Assembly (NCBI GenBank): GCA_964410395.1
Contig: CAYPGS010000009.1
Span: 6,038 to 70,037 of the forward strand
DNA: 64,000 bases
Source of the DNA: an uncultured bacterium
GTDB taxonomy: Bacteria > Krumholzibacteriota > Krumholzibacteriia > JACNKJ01
Direction of reading: 5' to 3'
The notes under the pieces were generated by a model. That model was not told the DNA's origin. It was given only the letters and a program-made list of their open reading frames with translations, and made no database searches. The translations under genes were made by a program, and so were the position numbers. Positions 9,387-64,000 of this stretch are shown here, piece by piece; positions within the stretch are counted from its first letter, which is position 1, and each line of letters begins with the position of its first letter.

Positions 9387-9749
9387 TCATCCTCCGGGGC
9401 TGGGTTCCGTGCTCTTGAAGAAGCCGATCAGGTTGCCTTCCGGATCGGCCACGTTGATGAAGATGGCCTCGCGGGTCACCTCTTCGCGCAGGATCTCCAC
9501 CCCGCGCTCGGCCAGCAGGCTGCGCAGGGTGATGGGATCGTCGATCTCCACGTCCAGGTAGGTGCCCTGGCCGGTGGGAGCGTCCCAATCGCCGTTTCGG
9601 GTCTCCTGCAGCCCGATGAGGAGGGCTCCGGCATCGATATAGCAGTAGCCCTTTCCCTCGTCGGTCAGATCCCAGCCGAGGGTCTTGGTGTAGAATCGCT
9701 TCATCTTGGTGTAGTGCCGGCACCGGAAGGTGACGCTGACCGCTCGCAT
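9387..9749 (-). CDS. small VOC/glyoxalase-like superfamily protein (tentative)
   Basis: 120-aa ORF immediately upstream of and co-directional with subtilase (5-bp gap); weak resemblance to glyoxalase/bleomycin-resistance fold; no strong motif. Confidence 0.35.
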   Translation of the reverse strand: MRAVSVTFRCRHYTKMKRFYTKTLGWDLTDEGKGYCYIDAGALLIGLQETRNGDWDAPTGQGTYLDVEIDDPITLRSLLAERGVEILREEVTREAIFINVADPEGNLIGFFKSTEPSPGG

Positions 9750-9888
9750 GATTCTCCTCGTTGGCTCGTCGCCGGAAAGCGTTCCCGGATACTACGCCAA
9801 GGTCCCCCCGGCATCAAGCCGTCGAGCGCTCCAAGATCCCAGGAATATTGCCGTTAAAAGGACGTGAAAAAACTCGCCGGGGTTGTGG

Positions 9889-9924
9889 ATTTCCCGGTCG
9901 ATATGCATAGATTGAACGGGAAAT
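9889..9924. promoter_or_regulatory. inverted repeat ATTTCCCG-N20-CGGGAAAT (spacer contains TATGCATA palindrome) 22 nt upstream of PFOR start; candidate operator
   Basis: Arms 9889-9896 and 9917-9924 are exact reverse complements; SD CAGGAGGA at 9933-9940; ATG 9946. Confidence 0.4.
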
Positions 9925-9945
9925 CAGGCCTTCAGGAGGATCGCC

Positions 9946-13533
<3,588 letters not shown>

Positions 13534-13535
13534 GC

Positions 13536-13634
13536 CTCCAGCTACCAGCAGCCAGCTACCAGCCGGATCCTCGCATCTCATGTGCGAATGGGAGTATTCC
13601 GGCTGAAAGCTGGCAGCTGGGGGCTGGTAGCTCA
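13536..13634. repeat. CCAGCTN-heptamer inverted-repeat hairpin element, copy A (long form with nested central hairpins)
   Basis: Left arm CCAGCTA CCAGCAG CCAGCTA CCAGCCGG (13538-13566), right arm CCGGCTGAAAGCTGGCAGCTGGGGGCTGGTAGCTC (13599-13634); between PFOR stop and ACD start. Confidence 0.85.
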
Positions 13635-13647
13635 GAAAGGAGTGACC

Positions 13648-15756
13648 ATGTACGAGTCACTGCTTTCTCCCGGCTCCATCTGCGTCATCGGCGCTTCCCA
13701 GACGCCCGGCAAGGTGGGCTACGAGATCTTCGCCAATCTGGTCGACGGCGGCTTTCAGGGAAAACTATTCCCCGTGAATCCGAAAGCCGACTCCATCCTC
13801 GGCCATGCCTGTTTTCCCGACATCTCCTTCCTTCCAGAAAGCCCCGACCTCGCGGTGATCGCGGTGCCTACGCCCGCGGTGAAGCCCGCCGTGGAGGCCA
13901 GCCACCAGAAGGGCGCCGGCGCGATCATCGTGATCACCGCGGGATTCAAGGAGACCGGTCCCGAAGGCGCGAAGCTCGAAGAGGAGATATCTCGTCTCTG
14001 TCGCGGGAAGGACGTGCCCCTCATGGGGCCCAACTGCCTCGGACTCGTGAACACGCAGCACGCCATGAACGCGTCCTTCGCCAGCCACATGCCCGAGGAA
14101 GGCGAGATCTCCGTGCTCTCGCAATCGGGCGCGTTGTGCACGGCCATCCTGGACTGGGCCGCCGGACGTCACCTGGGCCTGGCCAAGCTGGTGAGCATGG
14201 GCAACAAGGCGGGTCTGGACGAGCGCCACTTCCTTTCCGCCTTCGCCGAGGACGATGACACCAAGGTCATCGTGGGCTACCTGGAAAGCATCAGCGAGGG
14301 CGATGAGTTCATCCGCCGGGCCGAGGCCGTGGCGACGAAGAAGCCCGTGGTACTGCTCAAGGTGGGCAGCACCGAGGCCGGCGGAAAGGCGGCGAGTTCA
14401 CACACGGGTTCGCTGGCCGGAGCCGATGTGGCCTACGGCGCGGCCTTCAAGCGGGCGGGCGTGATCCGGGCGGAGAACTTCGAGCATCTCTTCGACGTGG
14501 CCACCGCCCTGGCCATGCAGCCCCTGCCCCAGGGCGACCGCGTGGCCATCATCACCAACGCGGGCGGACCCGGCATCATGGCGGCCGACGCCGTGGAGAA
14601 CGCCGGCATGACCGTGTCGAAGCTCTCCGGCGAAAGCGCCGAGGCCCTGGCCGACAAGCTTCCCGCGGCCGCCAGCGTCGCCAATCCCATCGACGTGCTG
14701 GGCGACGCCGATCCCGAGCGCTACGCCATGGCCCTGGACGTGGCCCAGGACGACGACACGGTGGACGCCATCGTCGTCATCCTCACGCCCCAGGCGATGA
14801 CCCGCCCCGCGGAGACGGCCCGGGCCATCGCCGCGCGGGTGAGGAACGAGAAGCCGGTTCTGGCGGTCTTCATGGGTGGGCGGGACGTCATGCCCGGCCG
14901 CGAGGAGCTGGTGGAGGCCAAGCTGCCCGACTACACGTCCCCCGAGCGCGCGGTGGCCGCGTTGAAGGCCATGCGCAGCTACGCCGAGTGGAGGAAGCGT
15001 CCGCCGCGCATCGTGTCGCGATTCCCCGTGAACCGGCGCCGGGTGGAGCGCATCCTCTCTCGGCAGGTTCGATCGGGACGCGTACAGGTCGGCGAAGTTC
15101 AGGCCAAGGAAATTCTGCGCGCCTACGATTTCAACGTGCCCGCCGGACAGCTCGCGACCAACGGCGATGAGGCCGTGGACATAGCCGAGCGCCTTGGGTA
15201 TCCCCTGGCCATGAAAATCGTTTCGGCGGAAATCGTGCACAAGTCGGACTTCGGCGGCGTGAAGATCGGCCTGGGTTCGGCCGATGAAGTGCGCGACGCC
15301 TTCGACCTCATGACCCTTCGCATCGGGCGGCGCATGCCCGAGGCGAAGATCGACGGGATCTACATCGAACAGATGGCGGGGCGCGGCCGCGAGGTCATCC
15401 TGGGAATGACCAGGGATCCGCAGTTCGGCCCCATGCTCATGTTCGGACTCGGCGGCATCTTCGTAGAGGTCATGAAGGACGTCACCTTCCACCTGGCCCC
15501 CATCACTCGCGATGAGGCTCTGCAGATGCTCATGGGCACGCGCTCCTACGCGCTCCTCGAGGGCGCCCGCGGACAGGGCCGCGTGGATATCGGCGCCATC
15601 GCCAAGGGCATCCAGCGCATCAGTCAGCTGGTGACCGACTTCCCGCAGATCGCCGAACTGGACATCAATCCGCTCATCGTCGGACCCGTGGGCACCGAAC
15701 CCGCCGTGGCCGACGCGAGGATCACCCTTTCCAAGGAGGGGGATGGCGATGATTGA
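13648..15756 (+). CDS. acd: acetyl-CoA synthetase (ADP-forming), fused alpha/beta subunits (acetate--CoA ligase [ADP-forming])
   Basis: ATG 13648 (MYESLLSPGSICVIGASQTPGKVGYEIF..., CoA-binding) with AAAGGAG SD; succinyl-CoA-synthetase-like and ATP-grasp regions; ORF-track start 13582 reads through the repeat element and is rejected. Confidence 0.85.
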   Translation: MYESLLSPGSICVIGASQTPGKVGYEIFANLVDGGFQGKLFPVNPKADSILGHACFPDISFLPESPDLAVIAVPTPAVKPAVEASHQKGAGAIIVITAGFKETGPEGAKLEEEISRLCRGKDVPLMGPNCLGLVNTQHAMNASFASHMPEEGEISVLSQSGALCTAILDWAAGRHLGLAKLVSMGNKAGLDERHFLSAFAEDDDTKVIVGYLESISEGDEFIRRAEAVATKKPVVLLKVGSTEAGGKAASSHTGSLAGADVAYGAAFKRAGVIRAENFEHLFDVATALAMQPLPQGDRVAIITNAGGPGIMAADAVENAGMTVSKLSGESAEALADKLPAAASVANPIDVLGDADPERYAMALDVAQDDDTVDAIVVILTPQAMTRPAETARAIAARVRNEKPVLAVFMGGRDVMPGREELVEAKLPDYTSPERAVAALKAMRSYAEWRKRPPRIVSRFPVNRRRVERILSRQVRSGRVQVGEVQAKEILRAYDFNVPAGQLATNGDEAVDIAERLGYPLAMKIVSAEIVHKSDFGGVKIGLGSADEVRDAFDLMTLRIGRRMPEAKIDGIYIEQMAGRGREVILGMTRDPQFGPMLMFGLGGIFVEVMKDVTFHLAPITRDEALQMLMGTRSYALLEGARGQGRVDIGAIAKGIQRISQLVTDFPQIAELDINPLIVGPVGTEPAVADARITLSKEGDGDD

Positions 15757-17626
15757 GGAGAAGAGCAGCATCGATCCCGCCTGGCAGGAGAAGTACGCCG
15801 ACCTGATCCTGAGCCCGAAGGAGGCGCTGGAGGGCATTCGTCCCGGACAGCGCGTCTTCGTCGGCACGGGATGCGCCCAGCCGCAGACCCTGGTCCAGGC
15901 CCTCGCGGACCGGGCCGGCGAACTGGCCGATACCGAGATCGTGCATCTGCTGACCTTCGGCGACGCGCCCTACGCGAAGAAGGAACTGGCATCGCAGTTC
16001 CGCGTGAACAGCTTCTTCATCGCCGACAACGTGCGCAGCATCATCCAGGAAGGCATGGGCGACTACACGCCCATCTTCCTGTCCGACATCCCCCGCCTCT
16101 TCAGCTCGGGACAGCTCCCTCTCGACGTGGCTCTCGTGCAGGTGACGCCGCCTGACGATCGCGGGCGCTGCAGCCTGGGCGTATCGGTGGACATCGTGAA
16201 AAGCGCCATGGCCAACGCCTCGCTGGTCATTGCCGAGGTGAATCCGCAGATGCCCCGCGTCCTGGGCAACAGCTTCGTGGACGTCTGGGATCTCGACGTC
16301 CTGGTTCCGATGGACGAGCCCGTTCTCGAACGACCTCCACGGGAGCCTGACGACCTCACCCGCAAGATCGGCGAGTACGTGGCCTCGCTGGTGGACGACG
16401 GCAGCACCCTGGAGCTCGGCATCGGGCGAATTCCCCACGCGGTGCTGGAGTTTCTCGGCGAGAAGAAGGACCTGGGCATCCACACCGAGATGCTCACCGA
16501 TGGGATCATCCCGATGATCGAATCAGGGGTGATCAATGGCAGCCGGAAGAGCCTGGACCGCGGGAAGATCGTGGCCAGCTTCTGCCTGGGCACGAAGAAG
16601 CTCTACGACTACATCGACGAGAATCCGAACATCGCCTTCCACCCCACCGAATACGTGAACGACCCCTTCGTGATCAGCCAGCAGAACAGGATGGTGGCCA
16701 TCAACGTGGCCCTCGAGGTGGATCTCACCGGACAGGTCTGCGCCGACTCCATCGGCTCGAAATTCTTCTCGGGCATCGGCGGGCAGGTCGACTTCAACCG
16801 CGGCGCCGCGCGCTCGGAGGGCGGCAAGGCCATCATCGCCATGCCCGCCACGGCACTGGCCGGCAAGAAGAGCCGCATCGTCTCGCAGCTCGCGCCGGGC
16901 GCCGGCGTGGTGACCACCCGTGGCGACGTGCACTACGTGGTAACCGAGTACGGTGTGGCCTACCTGCACGGAAAGAGCGTGCAGGACCGCGCACTGGCGC
17001 TGATCAGCATCGCCCATCCGGAGTTCCGGGCCGAGCTGCTGCGCGAGGCCATCGAGGCCAAGTACGTGAGCCCCGACAAGACGGGCGTGGAGGGACGTCT
17101 GGTGGTGGGGCCCCAGGAGCTTCGCAGCACCTACATCCTGGACGACGGAACGCCCATCGCCTTCCGGCCCATCCACCCCACCGACGAGCACAATCTGAAG
17201 GATCTCTACTACGCGCTGAGCCAGGAGACGATCTACTACCGCTTCATGCAAAATCTGAAACGGATTCCCCAGAAGCAGGTGCAGGACTTCGTCTTCATCG
17301 ACCACCGCAGCGACGTGGCCATCGTGGGCACACTGCCCGAGGCCCATGGCGAGCAGTTCGTGGCCATCGGCCGCTACTTCCTCGATCCGACTTCGAACCG
17401 GGCGGAGGTGGCCTTCGTGGTGAGGGACGAGTGGCAGAACCGGGGCATCGGCTCCTACCTGCTCAAGTCGCTCACGACCATCGCGCGGCGAAACGGTATC
17501 GGTGGTTTCACTGCGGAAGTGCTCAAGCAGAATCGCGCCATGCAGTCGGTCTTCAACAACAGCGGACTCAAGGTGAAGAGCCACCTCAAGGGCGAGGTCT
17601 GGCACTTCGATCTGGAGTTCAATTAA
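15743..17626 (+). CDS. acetyl-CoA hydrolase/transferase-family (4-hydroxybutyrate CoA-transferase-like) domain fused to C-terminal GNAT acetyltransferase domain
   Basis: 627 aa; overlaps acd stop by 14 nt; CoA-transferase signatures ...LELGIGRIPHAVL..., ...FFSGIGGQVDFNRGAARSEGGKAIIAMPAT...; C-terminal ~180 aa has GNAT motif A (WQNRGIGSYLLKSL). Confidence 0.7.
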   Translation: MAMIEEKSSIDPAWQEKYADLILSPKEALEGIRPGQRVFVGTGCAQPQTLVQALADRAGELADTEIVHLLTFGDAPYAKKELASQFRVNSFFIADNVRSIIQEGMGDYTPIFLSDIPRLFSSGQLPLDVALVQVTPPDDRGRCSLGVSVDIVKSAMANASLVIAEVNPQMPRVLGNSFVDVWDLDVLVPMDEPVLERPPREPDDLTRKIGEYVASLVDDGSTLELGIGRIPHAVLEFLGEKKDLGIHTEMLTDGIIPMIESGVINGSRKSLDRGKIVASFCLGTKKLYDYIDENPNIAFHPTEYVNDPFVISQQNRMVAINVALEVDLTGQVCADSIGSKFFSGIGGQVDFNRGAARSEGGKAIIAMPATALAGKKSRIVSQLAPGAGVVTTRGDVHYVVTEYGVAYLHGKSVQDRALALISIAHPEFRAELLREAIEAKYVSPDKTGVEGRLVVGPQELRSTYILDDGTPIAFRPIHPTDEHNLKDLYYALSQETIYYRFMQNLKRIPQKQVQDFVFIDHRSDVAIVGTLPEAHGEQFVAIGRYFLDPTSNRAEVAFVVRDEWQNRGIGSYLLKSLTTIARRNGIGGFTAEVLKQNRAMQSVFNNSGLKVKSHLKGEVWHFDLEFN

Positions 17627-17710
17627 CTTCAACTTGAACTCGAAATGAACTCCCCACCCCCATCCAACCGGTGGGGGTTCCTTCTTGTTCAAGTTCACGT
17701 TCAAGTTCAC
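17627..17710. promoter_or_regulatory. repeat-rich intergenic region: inverted GTTCAAGTT copy (17627-17639), hairpin CCCCCA-9nt-TGGGGG + T-rich tail (17657-17690, possible terminator of upstream operon), tandem GTTCAAGTTCAC x2 (17687-17710)
   Basis: All repeats read directly; lies upstream of first Cys-rich paralogue. Confidence 0.45.
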
Positions 17711-17777
17711 GTTTCTCATGATTCCGGTTCGCTTCTTGCAATTCCTCCAGCGGCACGCAATCACTGGAGGAGAATCA

Positions 17778-18356
17778 ATGCGCAAAGTACTGCTAACACT
17801 GGCACTTATGAGTATCGCCACCGTCGGCCTGGCCGATCCGGTGATCGGAATCTTTGCAGACGAGAACATGGTTTCTTGCGATACTGCCCTGATTCCTTAC
17901 GCCCCCACCATGCTCTACGTGATCGCCTACTGGACCACCGGTCCTCTGGATGACGGCATCACCGCCGCCGAGTTCAGGCTCGACGGGTTGCCCCAGAACG
18001 ACGGGTATCCCCTGGGTCAGGTCACGGTCAACCATACGACGGATCTGGTCATCGGTAACATCTGGCATGACTACTCCGCCGCCTGGTCGAATCCTCAGGG
18101 CGCGGGCGTGAGTCAGTTCACCATCTGCAGCATCGAGATTCTCATGTTCGACGCCGGCTGGGTCGGCCCGGACACCGAAGTCACCGTCTCCGCAGGATTT
18201 GACTGTGACTGCCTGGTTCTCGTGGACTCCTTCTTCGACGTGCACACCGCCGCCGGAGGGCTGTTCACCCTGAACTGTTCCGAGCCTCCCTGCGATTGCT
18301 TCCCGCCGGTCGCTACCGAGAGCACCAGCTGGAGCAATGTGAAGTCGCTTTTCTAG
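17778..18356 (+). CDS. secreted Cys-rich hypothetical protein, paralogue 1 (unknown family)
   Basis: ATG 17778 with GGAGG SD 7 nt upstream; signal peptide MRKVLLTLALMSIATVGLA; conserved blocks shared with paralogue 2: DGYPxGxVTVNHTTDLVIGxIWxDYSAAW, FTICSIE, CxCLxLVD, NCSxPPCDCFPP, TSWSxVKxLF. Confidence 0.6.
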   Translation: MRKVLLTLALMSIATVGLADPVIGIFADENMVSCDTALIPYAPTMLYVIAYWTTGPLDDGITAAEFRLDGLPQNDGYPLGQVTVNHTTDLVIGNIWHDYSAAWSNPQGAGVSQFTICSIEILMFDAGWVGPDTEVTVSAGFDCDCLVLVDSFFDVHTAAGGLFTLNCSEPPCDCFPPVATESTSWSNVKSLF

Positions 18357-47301: not shown

Positions 47302-47370
47302 TCTTGCTCCTCTTTCGGTCGGCTACTCCAGCATTTCCGTCGTTCGCGGAATCTGCTCGCCTGTCGATTT

Positions 47371-47437
47371 AGCTACCAGCTTCCAGCTACCAGCGACCAG
47401 CTTCTTGCTGGCGGCTGGCAGCTGGCTGCAGGCGGCC
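47371..47437. repeat. CCAGCTN-heptamer inverted-repeat hairpin element, copy B (immediately 3' of tuf stop)
   Basis: AGCTACC AGCTTCC AGCTACC AGCGACC AGC - TTCTT - GCTGGCG GCTGGCA GCTGGCT GCAGGCGGCC; near-identical to copy D1 at 63642-63705. Confidence 0.85.
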
Positions 47438-47439
47438 TT

Positions 47440-48630
47440 TTACTCGTTGATCTTCGTCACCACGCCGGCGCCCACCGTGCGGCCGCCTTCACGGATCGCG
47501 AACCGAAGGTTCTCCTCCATCGCGATCGGCGTGATCAGCTCAACGTCCAGCTTAACATTGTCACCGGGCATCACCATCTCCGTGCCCTCAGGCAGCGTCG
47601 CAACACCCGTCACGTCCGTCGTACGGAAGTAGAACTGGGGACGGTAGCCCTGGAAGAAGGGAGTATGACGGCCGCCCTCTTCCTTCGTCAGGATGTAGAC
47701 CTCGCCCTCGAACTTCGTGTGAGGCGTCACGCTGCCAGGCTTCGCCAGCACCATGCCGCGCTCCAGGTCGCTCTTCTCCACGCCGCGAAGCAGAAGGCCC
47801 ACGTTGTCGCCAGCCTGGGCATCGTCCAGAAGCTTGCGGAACATCTCAACACCGGTCACCGTCGTCTCGAGCGTGTCACGGATGCCGATCCGCTGGACCT
47901 TGTCGCCCACCTTCACCACGCCGCGCTCGATACGGCCCGTGCCCACCGTGCCGCGACCCGTGATCGAGAAGACGTCCTCGACCGGCATCAGGAAGGGCTT
48001 GTCCGTGTCCCGCTCAGGCTCCGGAATGTAGCTGTCGATCGCTTCCAGAAGCTCGTCGATGCTCTTGTTTGCCGCATCGTCCTCAGGGTTGTTCAGGGCC
48101 TGAAGCGCGCTGCCCCGGATGACCGGAATGTCGTCGCCCGGGAACTCGTACTCGCTCAGAAGCTCGCGAACCTCGAGCTCCACCAGGTCCAACAGCTCTT
48201 CGTCGTCAACCTGGTCCACCTTGTTCATGTAGACCACCATGTAGGGAACGTTCACCTGACGACCCAGCAGAACGTGCTCGCGGGTCTGGGGCATCGGGCC
48301 GTCGGCCGCGCTCACCACCAGAACCGCGCCATCCATCTGAGCCGCACCCGTGATCATGTTCTTCACGTAGTCGGCGTGACCCGGGCAGTCAACGTGAGCG
48401 TAGTGACGGTTCTCCGTCTGGTACTCCACGTGAGCCGTCGCGATGGTGATGCCGCGCTCGCGCTCCTCAGGAGCCTTGTCGATCTCGTCGAAGGGCGTGA
48501 ACTCGGCAAGGCCCTTGGCGCCCTGACGCTGAGTGATCGCCGCCGTCAGCGTCGTCTTCCCGTGGTCAACGTGACCGATCGTACCCACGTTTACGTGCGG
48601 CTTTGTCCTCTCAAACTTCTCTTTCGCCAT
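47440..48630 (-). CDS. tuf: elongation factor Tu (str-operon copy)
   Basis: 396 aa; [32 protein letters not shown]... Confidence 0.97.
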
Positions 48631-50739: not shown

Positions 50740-50804
50740 AAAAAAACCCCTCCTGAGACCCTTCGACTTGTACATAGTCCTGCAGTCAAGGGTCTCAGGA
50801 GGGG
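50740..50804 (-). promoter_or_regulatory. terminator-like RNA hairpin in rpsG-fusA spacer: perfect 15-bp stem (CCCCUCCUGAGACCC ... GGGUCUCAGGAGGGG), 28-nt loop, then U7, ending 6 nt before fusA AUG; the 3' arm contains AGGAGG
   Basis: Plus-strand arms 50747-50761 and 50790-50804 are exact reverse complements; A7 at 50740-50746 (U7 on the minus-strand transcript). Confidence 0.6.
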
Positions 50805-50920
50805 TTTCCCTTTCGGGACCTTTTCCTGCAGGTATCGTCCTCCGGCGGTTCGGCCCGTCGATACTTGGGGCCTCGTTCACCGCTGCCGGCGGCTATGTAA
50901 GGGTCTTCCTTTCCTAGAGA

Positions 50921-51926: not shown

Positions 51927-51942
51927 CCCGTTAGGGAATAAA

Positions 51943-52011
51943 AGCTACCAGCTTCCAGCTGCCAGCTACCGGCCAGAATCCGGCTGGGAGCTGGTTGCTG
52001 GCGGCTGGCCG
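51943..52011. repeat. CCAGCTN-heptamer inverted-repeat hairpin element, copy C (immediately 3' of rpoC stop)
   Basis: AGCTACC AGCTTCC AGCTGCC AGCTACC GGCC - AGAAT - CCGGCTGGGAGCTGGTTGCTGGCGGCTGGCCG. Confidence 0.85.
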
Positions 52012-56226
<4,215 letters not shown>

Positions 56227-63474: not shown

Positions 63475-63486
63475 CTCGGATCCTTT

Positions 63487-63554
63487 CCAGCTTCCAGCTC
63501 CCAGCTCCCAGCTTCCAGCTTTCTGGCTGGCCGCTGGCTGCTGGCTGCTGGTGG
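63487..63554. repeat. CCAGCTN-heptamer inverted-repeat hairpin element, copy D2 (five perfect tandem heptamers; between tRNA-Trp and secE)
   Basis: CCAGCTT CCAGCTC CCAGCTC CCAGCTT CCAGC - TTTCT - GGCTGGC CGCTGGC TGCTGGC TGCTGGT GG. Confidence 0.85.
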
Positions 63555-63563
63555 CTTCTTCGG

Positions 63564-63637: not shown

Positions 63638-63641
63638 ACTG

Positions 63642-63705
63642 AGCTACCAGCTTCCAGCTACCAGCAGCCAGCTTCTTGCTGGAGGCTGGCAGCTGGCCGC
63701 TGGCC
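63642..63705. repeat. CCAGCTN-heptamer inverted-repeat hairpin element, copy D1 (3' of rpmG; near-identical to copy B)
   Basis: AGCTACC AGCTTCC AGCTACC AGCAGCC AGC - TTCTT - GCTGGAGGCTGGCAGCTGGCCGCTGGCC. Confidence 0.85.
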
Positions 63706-63710
63706 ACTCT

Positions 63711-63860: not shown

Positions 63861-63871
63861 GATGCGGCTCC

Positions 63872-64000
63872 TTATTCGTTGATCTTCGTCACCACGCCGG
63901 CGCCCACCGTGCGGCCGCCTTCACGGATCGCGAACCGAAGGTTCTCCTCCATCGCGATCGGCGTGATCAGCTCAACGTCCAGCTTAACATTGTCACCGGG
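63872..64000 (-). CDS. tuf: elongation factor Tu, second copy (C-terminal end only; continues past window)
   Basis: 63877-64000 is nucleotide-identical to 47445-47568 (3' end of the str-operon tuf); stop codon TAA at complement 63872-63874. Confidence 0.9.

Follow-up and report, generated by a model that had tools for sequence, protein, structure and literature searches.

Introduction

REP, BIME and REPIN elements are multi-copy, extragenic, imperfect palindromes that often lie between cistrons or in 3' UTRs. REPs are 20 to 40 bp long, with a fixed consensus, a GTAG/CGTC tag and a link to RAYT transposases (PMC3733652, PMC2817692), and their consensus is specific to each genome. As reported in PMC12306157, which cites Liang et al. 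2015 and Higgins et al., mRNA half-life falls when REPs are deleted from 3' UTRs, and ribosomes stall at REPs no more than 15 nt from a stop codon. REP families also show a concerted pattern for which gene conversion has been proposed (Higgins 1988, listed in PMC12306157). Heptameric simple sequence repeats (SSRs), among them the cyanobacterial STRR, GGGAATC in Xanthomonas, GGGGAYT in Nostoc and TAACTGA in Beggiatoaceae, make up a second group. These are mainly direct arrays, either prone to form G-quadruplexes or placed just upstream of start codons, although some form inverted pairs capable of stem-loops (PMC4692102) and some lie in ribosomal-protein operons (PMC4679880). The excess of heptamer tandem repeats in bacterial intergenic DNA is well known, while its function and origin are not agreed upon (PMC4692102, PMC4679880).

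Two further kinds of structure invite comparison. Intrinsic terminators, including bidirectional ones, are GC-rich stem-loops downstream of stop codons. RNase III processing stems, such as those of the rplL-rpoB spacer and phage T7 R1.1, are long imperfect double-stranded stems of more than 20 bp with internal loops, situated between the cistrons of highly expressed operons.

The element described here lies between the genes for PFOR and ADP-forming acetyl-CoA synthetase (acd) in a 64-kb stretch of DNA from an uncultured bacterium of the Krumholzibacteriota, the whole of which we call the window. Like REPs, it belongs to a multi-copy set of extragenic imperfect palindromes, and its heptamer units are genome specific. 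Unlike REPs, its relatives measure 70 to 100 nt, have arms of tandem 7-nt or 6-nt units and change their unit between sister genomes; in place of a short palindrome with a consensus, the constant part is the 5-nt CCAGC/GCTGG, and there is no conserved GTAG/CGTC tag. With heptameric SSRs it shares the period of 7, confinement to intergenic DNA, recurrence at the same gene pairs in relatives, and variability in length and sequence, but here mirrored arrays make one long hairpin directly past stop codons. In the literature covered by our search, the unit CCAGCNN does not occur. Its position downstream of a stop codon and its GC-rich stem recall intrinsic terminators, and hexamer-armed members of the set even have a terminator core, whereas the hairpin between PFOR and acd lacks a T-tract, is followed at once by a Shine-Dalgarno sequence (SD) and a start codon, and has a far longer stem. 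Its dimensions and place between cistrons also resemble those of RNase III stems, but with a 2x2 internal loop recurring every 5 bp it may be a poor substrate for RNase III. The definition of a MITE does not fit, as there is no flanking duplication and the site in relatives is not empty but occupied by another hairpin.

A long repeat-armed hairpin fills the PFOR-acd spacer

A long hairpin between PFOR and acd had been proposed from the sequence, and folding and inverted-repeat analysis confirm it (Table 1). Pfam assigns the flanking genes as proposed, with a PFOR of 1195 aa upstream and an ADP-forming acetyl-CoA synthetase of 702 aa downstream, and the outer arms, the 32-nt core and both inner dyads described in the original prediction are all present. 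The hairpin, which we call Copy A, takes up nearly the whole of the 114-nt spacer. It starts 1 nt past the PFOR stop codon and ends 2 nt before the acd SD, hence 14 nt before the ATG, and not 8 nt before the start codon as first described. GTG at 13582 was considered as the acd start and rejected, since the sequence is conserved in relatives only from the SD and the ATG of Table 1 onward.

The arms follow the formulae (CCAGCNN)4 on the 5' side and (NNGCTGG)4 on the 3' side of the unique core, and an inverted-repeat search reports them as 24 nt long and 88% complementary. Together they form an imperfect palindrome in which 5-bp CCAGC/GCTGG helices are split by variable dinucleotides that are often unpaired. 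TRF finds a period of 7 with 3.7 copies at 13538-13563 and similar arrays in every other copy, so that Copy A has the three or more tandem 7-nt units by which heptameric SSRs are recognized. The predicted fold contains about 35 to 37 pairs, interrupted by internal loops, at -64 to -66 kcal/mol. For positions 13530-13650 the minimum free energy is -66.0 kcal/mol on the plus strand and -66.7 on the minus strand, compared to a mean of about -41 to -42 kcal/mol (standard deviation about 4) for shuffled sequence; z is -6.3 on both strands, and none of 200 shuffles reached the energy of the native sequence.

Copy A is base-for-base the same in nine independent assemblies of one strain from three sequencing projects, which argues against an assembly artifact. 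We also considered the core as a small mobile insert and rejected this idea because it has no further copies: a blastn-short search with the cores of the window and of one relative (L221) against all DNA compared returned only self and same-strain matches.

Table 1. Window coordinates of Copy A, its parts and the other features discussed
Feature	Position	Strand	Description
Glyoxalase-PFOR spacer	9750-9945		Divergent promoter spacer, 197 nt; used as control
PFOR stop codon	13531-13533	+	TAA; hairpin base begins 1 nt on
Copy A	13534-13633	+	100-base hairpin between PFOR and acd, long form
5' arm	13538-13566	+	CCAGCTACCAGCAGCCAGCTACCAGCCGG; four heptamer units, CCAGC-TA, CCAGC-AG, CCAGC-TA, CCAGC-CGG
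Inner dyad	13563-13567 with 13598-13602	+	CCGGA with TCCGG
Core	13567-13598	+	ATCCTCGCATCTCATGTGCGAATGGGAGTATT; 32 nt, single-copy in all DNA compared
Apical mini-hairpin	13571-13587	+	TCGCA-tctcatg-TGCGA (TCGCA 13571-13575, TGCGA 13583-13587)
3' arm	13599-13633	+	CCGGCTGAAAGCTGGCAGCTGGGGGCTGGTAGCTC; units CCGGCTGA-AA, GCTGG-CA, GCTGG-GG, GCTGG-TA, GCTC
SD-masking hairpin	13626-13647	+	Small alternative hairpin; last arm unit (GGTAGCTC) pairs with acd SD region (GGAGTGACC)
acd SD	13636-13642	+	AAAGGAG
acd start codon	13648-13650	+	ATG
Hexamer hairpin	17623-17715	+	TGAACN/NGTTCA arms; directly past stop of third operon gene
Terminator-like site	17656-17678		First downstream of Copy A, beyond third gene
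Putative S10-operon leader	47302-47368	-	From Copy B to rpsJ start; ATCGACAGGCGAGCAG...GAAAGAGGAGCAAGAATG
Copy B	47369-47438	-	Short-form CCAGCNN hairpin, tuf-rpsJ; 3 nt past tuf stop, then conserved S10 leader
tuf, first copy	47440-48630	-	Before rpsJ
rpsG-fusA stem	50740-50811	-	In spacer 50740-50920
Copy C	51941-52013	-	Short form, rpoC-rpsL; directly past rpoC stop, upstream of rpsL promoter-like TTGACA
Copy D	63485-63558	-	tRNA-Trp 3' end to secE SD
Copy E	63640-63707	-	rpmG stop to tRNA-Trp
tuf, second copy	63870-64000	-	Before rpmG

Transcription context

A scan of positions 9700-18000 found neither a sigma-70-like promoter nor a stem-plus-T-tract terminator in the PFOR-acd spacer. The stem of Copy A is followed by AGAAAGGAG, which contains no T/U tract, and canonical T-tract terminators are present elsewhere in this lineage. 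Because the spacer is almost all hairpin, has no promoter or terminator consensus, and is followed by a terminator-like site only beyond the third gene of the operon, Copy A probably sits inside a PFOR-acd co-transcript. This upholds the original prediction of a co-transcript as probable. The hexamer-armed hairpin past the third gene has as its core a terminator-like GC stem, CCCCACCCCC...GGTGGGGG, with a T-rich tail, and probably marks where the PFOR-acd-ach operon ends. After this last gene (ach-GNAT), the sister genome has, in contrast to the window, a plain terminator-like hairpin without tandem repeats, and at the matching site of another relative (L215) hexamers are present on the 5' side only.

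Comparison with Rfam 15 at the gathering threshold across the whole window returned tRNA alone. At a permissive E-value, positions 13480-13700 matched miRNA-precursor models alone, with 13 to 30 bits against thresholds of 45 to 196.

Copy A is one member of a fast-evolving family

The pattern CCAGCNNCCAGCNNCCAGC, allowing up to two mismatches, has 32 matches in the window compared to 0.46 expected. The matches group into five hairpins, Copies A to E, or about one per 13 kb, and a sixth element is armed with hexamers (TGAACN/NGTTCA). All six are non-coding, lying between called genes or tRNAs, and all six begin 0 to 7 nt past a stop codon or tRNA 3' end and end where conservation with the sister genome picks up again. 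For the ribosomal clusters, gene calls were taken from orthologous loci, as the greedy ORF map chose antisense ORFs and was dropped. Many REPs likewise sit no more than 15 nt beyond a stop codon (PMC12306157). No direct duplications flanking these five copies are visible.

When each copy is read in the direction of its neighboring genes, every 5' arm consists of CCAGCNN units, position 7 of the unit is mostly a purine, and the 3' arm ends in GCTGGAAAGG in Copy D and in GCTGGTAGCT in the other four. As this pattern holds for Copy A on the plus strand and for the other four on the minus strand, polarity follows transcription. GTAG occurs in the terminal unit of four of the five copies and is absent from Copy D, from the sister copies and from L221. 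When 12 hairpins were folded in both senses, the sense strand was the more stable in 7, with a mean difference of -2.4 kcal/mol; since the sense strand has no consistent advantage, these energies do not set selection on the RNA apart from an origin at the DNA level or by mutation alone. Copy A is one member of a fast-evolving family, not a dedicated acd switch.

The window holds two tuf copies, and a heptamer hairpin follows only the first, on the rpsJ side; the second lies 11 nt from rpmG. The segment between Copy B and the rpsJ start is kept in distant relatives that have no repeat hairpin and is probably an S10-operon leader. Elsewhere in the ribosomal cluster, the rpsG-fusA spacer contains a stem of about 27 predicted pairs with perfect 20-nt arms, followed by seven T's. 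The stem has no Rfam family match; it lies in a spacer of about 140 nt that is near-identical in the sister genome (L224, 6387-6531), and the stem may serve as a conserved attenuator or leader upstream of fusA.

The hairpin is retained while its sequence is replaced

Collinear loci were found through the acd protein, and loci of about 20 kb were compared among relatives. The closest is a sister metagenome-assembled genome (MAG; contigs L010, L224 and L234), 88% identical to the window over 21 kb. Three others (L215, L218 and L221) share about 81% identity with the window, and the last two of these share 91% with one another. Further look-ups with the L12 and L11 proteins of the window returned the same strain only. 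The pairing of the two genes appears peculiar to this clade, since none of 79 other acd loci has PFOR within 10 kb.

A long hairpin is present in the PFOR-acd spacer of all five collinear genomes. In the window and L221 it is a CCAGCNN heptamer hairpin of the long form, and in the sister, L215 and L218 it is a TGAACN hexamer hairpin with a small GC core. The original prediction took absence from close relatives with the same gene pair as a sign of passive insertion; the specific element is indeed missing from the sister, but a long hairpin occupies the spacer in every relative. As a control, the divergent glyoxalase-PFOR promoter spacer is constant in length and largely conserved in sequence across the five genomes.

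The split between heptamer and hexamer hairpins does not follow the phylogeny of the flanking DNA, in which the window and L221 are not sisters. These two nevertheless have the last PFOR codons (GAATCATAAG) in common, as well as the heptamer, and their spacers align throughout, which suggests that the heptamer allele has been exchanged or is long-lived. The L221 core, at 42 nt, aligns loosely with that of the window through a shared GATCC and an apical stem, in which CCATGCA...TGCATGG occupies the place of the apical mini-hairpin of the window. In the L221 arms one CCAGT/ACTGG pair stands in place of CCAGC/GCTGG, and RNAalifold applied to the two sequences identifies 5 pairs altered on both sides. 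In L218, most of PFOR is missing (L218, 6603-9908), with a 233-aa C-terminal piece left and three unannotated minus-strand ORFs in its stead. This loss is either a real rearrangement or a misassembly; it affects neither the hexamer hairpin nor acd.

Unit variants are genome specific

Turnover extends beyond the PFOR-acd spacer. Between the window and its sister, the repeat unit is different or missing at four orthologous sites and variant at the two sites flanking a tRNA, and so the number and sequence of units vary among close relatives, as in heptameric SSRs. Between rpoC and rpsL, the CCAGCNN hairpin of the window is matched by a (TGNGAAC)n/(GTTCNCA)n hairpin in the sister; between tuf and rpsJ, by a one-sided (ACTGGAG)5 array; and on both flanks of tRNA-Trp, CCAGC and GCTGG units correspond to CCAGT-CG and ACTGG-AG. 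A more distant genome has a plain short hairpin alone after tuf. Other spacers of the relatives carry (TGAACN)n or (CTACCCG)n between a stop codon and a T-tract terminator, in some cases with no array on the 3' side. As the arrays sit beside ordinary terminators or plain hairpins and are sometimes one-sided, the cores seem to be the ancestral stem-loops, around which the repeat arms were added.

Within a genome the dispersed copies are alike. All 19 of the 3'-arm units at five loci in the window are GCTGG, followed by NA in 15, whereas all 13 at three loci in the sister are of the ACTGG type (10 ACTGG and 3 ACTCG), followed by AG in 10; among the sister's 5'-arm units, five of nine are changed to CCAGT. 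Units in L221 are mostly GCTGG-AG. The window and sister counts indicate that each genome has its own unit variant and that dispersed copies change together. A further heptamer unit is found in the sister after cysS (L234, 7444-7560), where GCCRARA and TTGGCNN arms accompany a GC stem with a T-tract, so that one genome holds many unit types.

A small SD-masking hairpin is conserved at acd

Separate from the long hairpin is a small alternative one in which, in the window, the last heptamer unit of Copy A serves as the anti-SD strand. Three relatives have CACTCCC-GAA-GGGAGTG at this place (L010, 9975-10000; L215 and L218, just before 10001), and L221 has GCCGCTCC-GAGA-GGAGCGGC, also just before 10001. 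Since these sequences differ yet pair, the SD-masking stem has been kept through compensatory changes. The acd SD, GGAG, is predicted to be mostly paired, with an unpaired probability of 0.25 in the window and 0.00 to 0.14 in the relatives. To judge from this comparison of sequences, the part conserved for acd is the separate hairpin of about 20 nt, not the 100-nt element.

Possible roles of Copy A and competing explanations

The reading that we favor, though tentatively, is that Copy A is a REP-like, SSR-type intercistronic stem-loop in the PFOR-acd-ach mRNA and acts as REPs do. The stability of the stem, its place at the stop codon, the persistence of the hairpin, the covariation of its arms and a polarity that follows the sense of transcription all point this way. 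In such a scheme, lineage-wide extragenic hairpins with tandem-repeat arms would fill the unconstrained spacer right past the stop codon, and Copy A, once transcribed in the PFOR-acd-ach mRNA, would form a very stable stem-loop working like E. coli REP elements in intercistronic and 3'-UTR positions. The stem could block 3'-to-5' decay or set processed ends, thereby uncoupling the amounts of PFOR and acd message, and may also hinder the terminating ribosome, as it begins 1 nt past the stop codon. Tandem-repeat arms would allow stem length and sequence to change fast by slippage, with arm pairing restored afterward. A role as processing site or stabilizer, raised in the original prediction, is plausible by analogy with what is reported for REPs (PMC12306157). 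The interpretation first offered is therefore supported in part, with the idea of an acd-specific leader falling away.

Some observations temper this REP-like reading and lend weight to a neutral one, in which slippage expands repeats in free spacer, template switching mirrors the arms, and the hairpin has no function of its own. The sister tuf-rpsJ copy has decayed to a one-sided array, which argues against strong maintenance of the hairpin at every site, and one-sided arrays occur elsewhere. Because the hairpins fill exactly the unconstrained, non-conserved interval, adjacency to stop codons could mark expansion halted by coding constraint. The unit differs, is missing or is variant at the window and sister sites described above, the variable dinucleotides are often mismatched, and sense and antisense stabilities do not differ significantly. 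In the literature, moreover, heptameric SSRs are described as over-represented in the intergenic DNA of many bacteria, with slippage as the proposed cause (PMC4692102 and PMC4679880, which both cite Mrazek 2007). Against this stand the presence of a long hairpin in all five genomes at PFOR-acd despite complete replacement of its sequence, a polarity that tracks the direction of transcription, and the invariance of Copy A in nine assemblies. Independent slippage also does not predict a unit variant common to dispersed loci (13 of 13 units in the sister and 19 of 19 in the window). On balance, we consider a purely neutral origin somewhat unlikely, though it is the strongest competitor of the REP-like reading.

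The sharing of genome-specific unit variants by dispersed loci speaks for a DNA-level repeat of the REP or REPIN kind, spread by RAYT-type mobilization or gene conversion and perhaps serving as a DNA-binding or cruciform site. The heptamer allele and GAATCATAAG in the non-sister genomes of the window and L221 suggest cassette exchange, and the GTAG in most window copies recalls the REP tag. That GTAG is, however, absent from the sister and L221 copies; target duplications are not visible, and the ancestral spacer has been replaced rather than inserted into; the elements, at 70 to 100 nt with tandem-repeat arms, contrast with REPs of 20 to 40 bp (PMC3733652); and polarity follows transcription, not the chromosome strand. 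An origin of this kind seems to us quite improbable.

We are more doubtful still that Copy A is a partial terminator or attenuator that lowers read-through from PFOR to acd. A very stable GC-rich stem directly past a highly expressed gene would suit such a role, related hexamer elements are built around terminator-like cores with T-tracts, and SSR arrays of relatives sit between stop codons and canonical terminators. But the stem of Copy A has no T/U tract after it, the scan shows no terminator there, the lineage uses ordinary T-tract terminators, and Copies D and E lie on either side of a tRNA within one transcription unit.

Least credible is a long acd-specific leader, whether riboswitch, thermosensor or SD-occlusion switch. 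A structured leader for acd was one of the options in the original prediction, and as far as the long hairpin is concerned it is by now mostly refuted. Pairing is possible between the last arm unit and the acd SD, which is mostly paired in all five genomes, and the SD-masking mini-hairpin shows compensatory changes, but the conserved piece is that 20-nt mini-hairpin and not the 100-nt element, the sister lacks the heptamer element and has an unrelated hairpin there, the long-hairpin type recurs after unrelated genes, and no Rfam family matches.

Returning to the REP-like reading, we infer that Copy A is transcribed and that any effect is exerted through the RNA; in the PFOR-acd operon it would then govern how much of one message there is relative to the other, rather than acting as a specific regulator of acetate or ATP formation. 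Its significance lies less in Copy A alone than in the evolutionary behavior of the family. The clade offers a comparative series, with the same spacers in genomes that are 81 to 91% identical, different repeat units, and a position always past stop codons. This series makes it testable whether such hairpins are selected RNA structures, as REPs are, or a self-propagating mutational pattern, and how dispersed copies stay alike inside one genome.

Related hairpins in metagenomes

A metagenome scan for four consecutive CCAGCNN units found at least 120 loci, and a mirrored arm accompanies 23 of 120, about one-fifth, among the matches listed. Placement relative to stop codons was judged in inspected cases only, as stop-to-stop ORFs are unreliable in GC-rich DNA; in these cases the hairpins begin at a stop codon, and some reach the SD or ATG of the next gene, as in the rpoN-hpf spacer of L189 and the spacer before gyrA in L096. 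The L189 contig belongs to the Acidobacteriota (Vicinamibacterales), as judged from a 93% identity between its sigma-54 and named proteins. A phage origin was considered and rejected, the hairpin-specific pattern having no matches in 2.9 million viral contigs.

A bolder proposal, for which we see only a slim chance, is that an activity encoded by the lineage rewrites the hairpins in concert across the genome, giving all copies within a genome one unit variant, and that the same system marks gene 3' ends in two unrelated phyla, Krumholzibacteriota-like bacteria and Acidobacteriota. Candidates would be copying or gene conversion, or an RNA- or DNA-binding protein that reads the heptad and coevolves with the unit. 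Were this so, the hairpins would represent a new kind of genome-wide, transcription-oriented punctuation element.

Soil metagenome contigs also provide CCAGCTN/NAGCTGG hairpins directly past stop codons (L189, L096, L133, L131 and L181), and in another contig, L091, CTACCCG and CTACCAG units are mixed within a single array.
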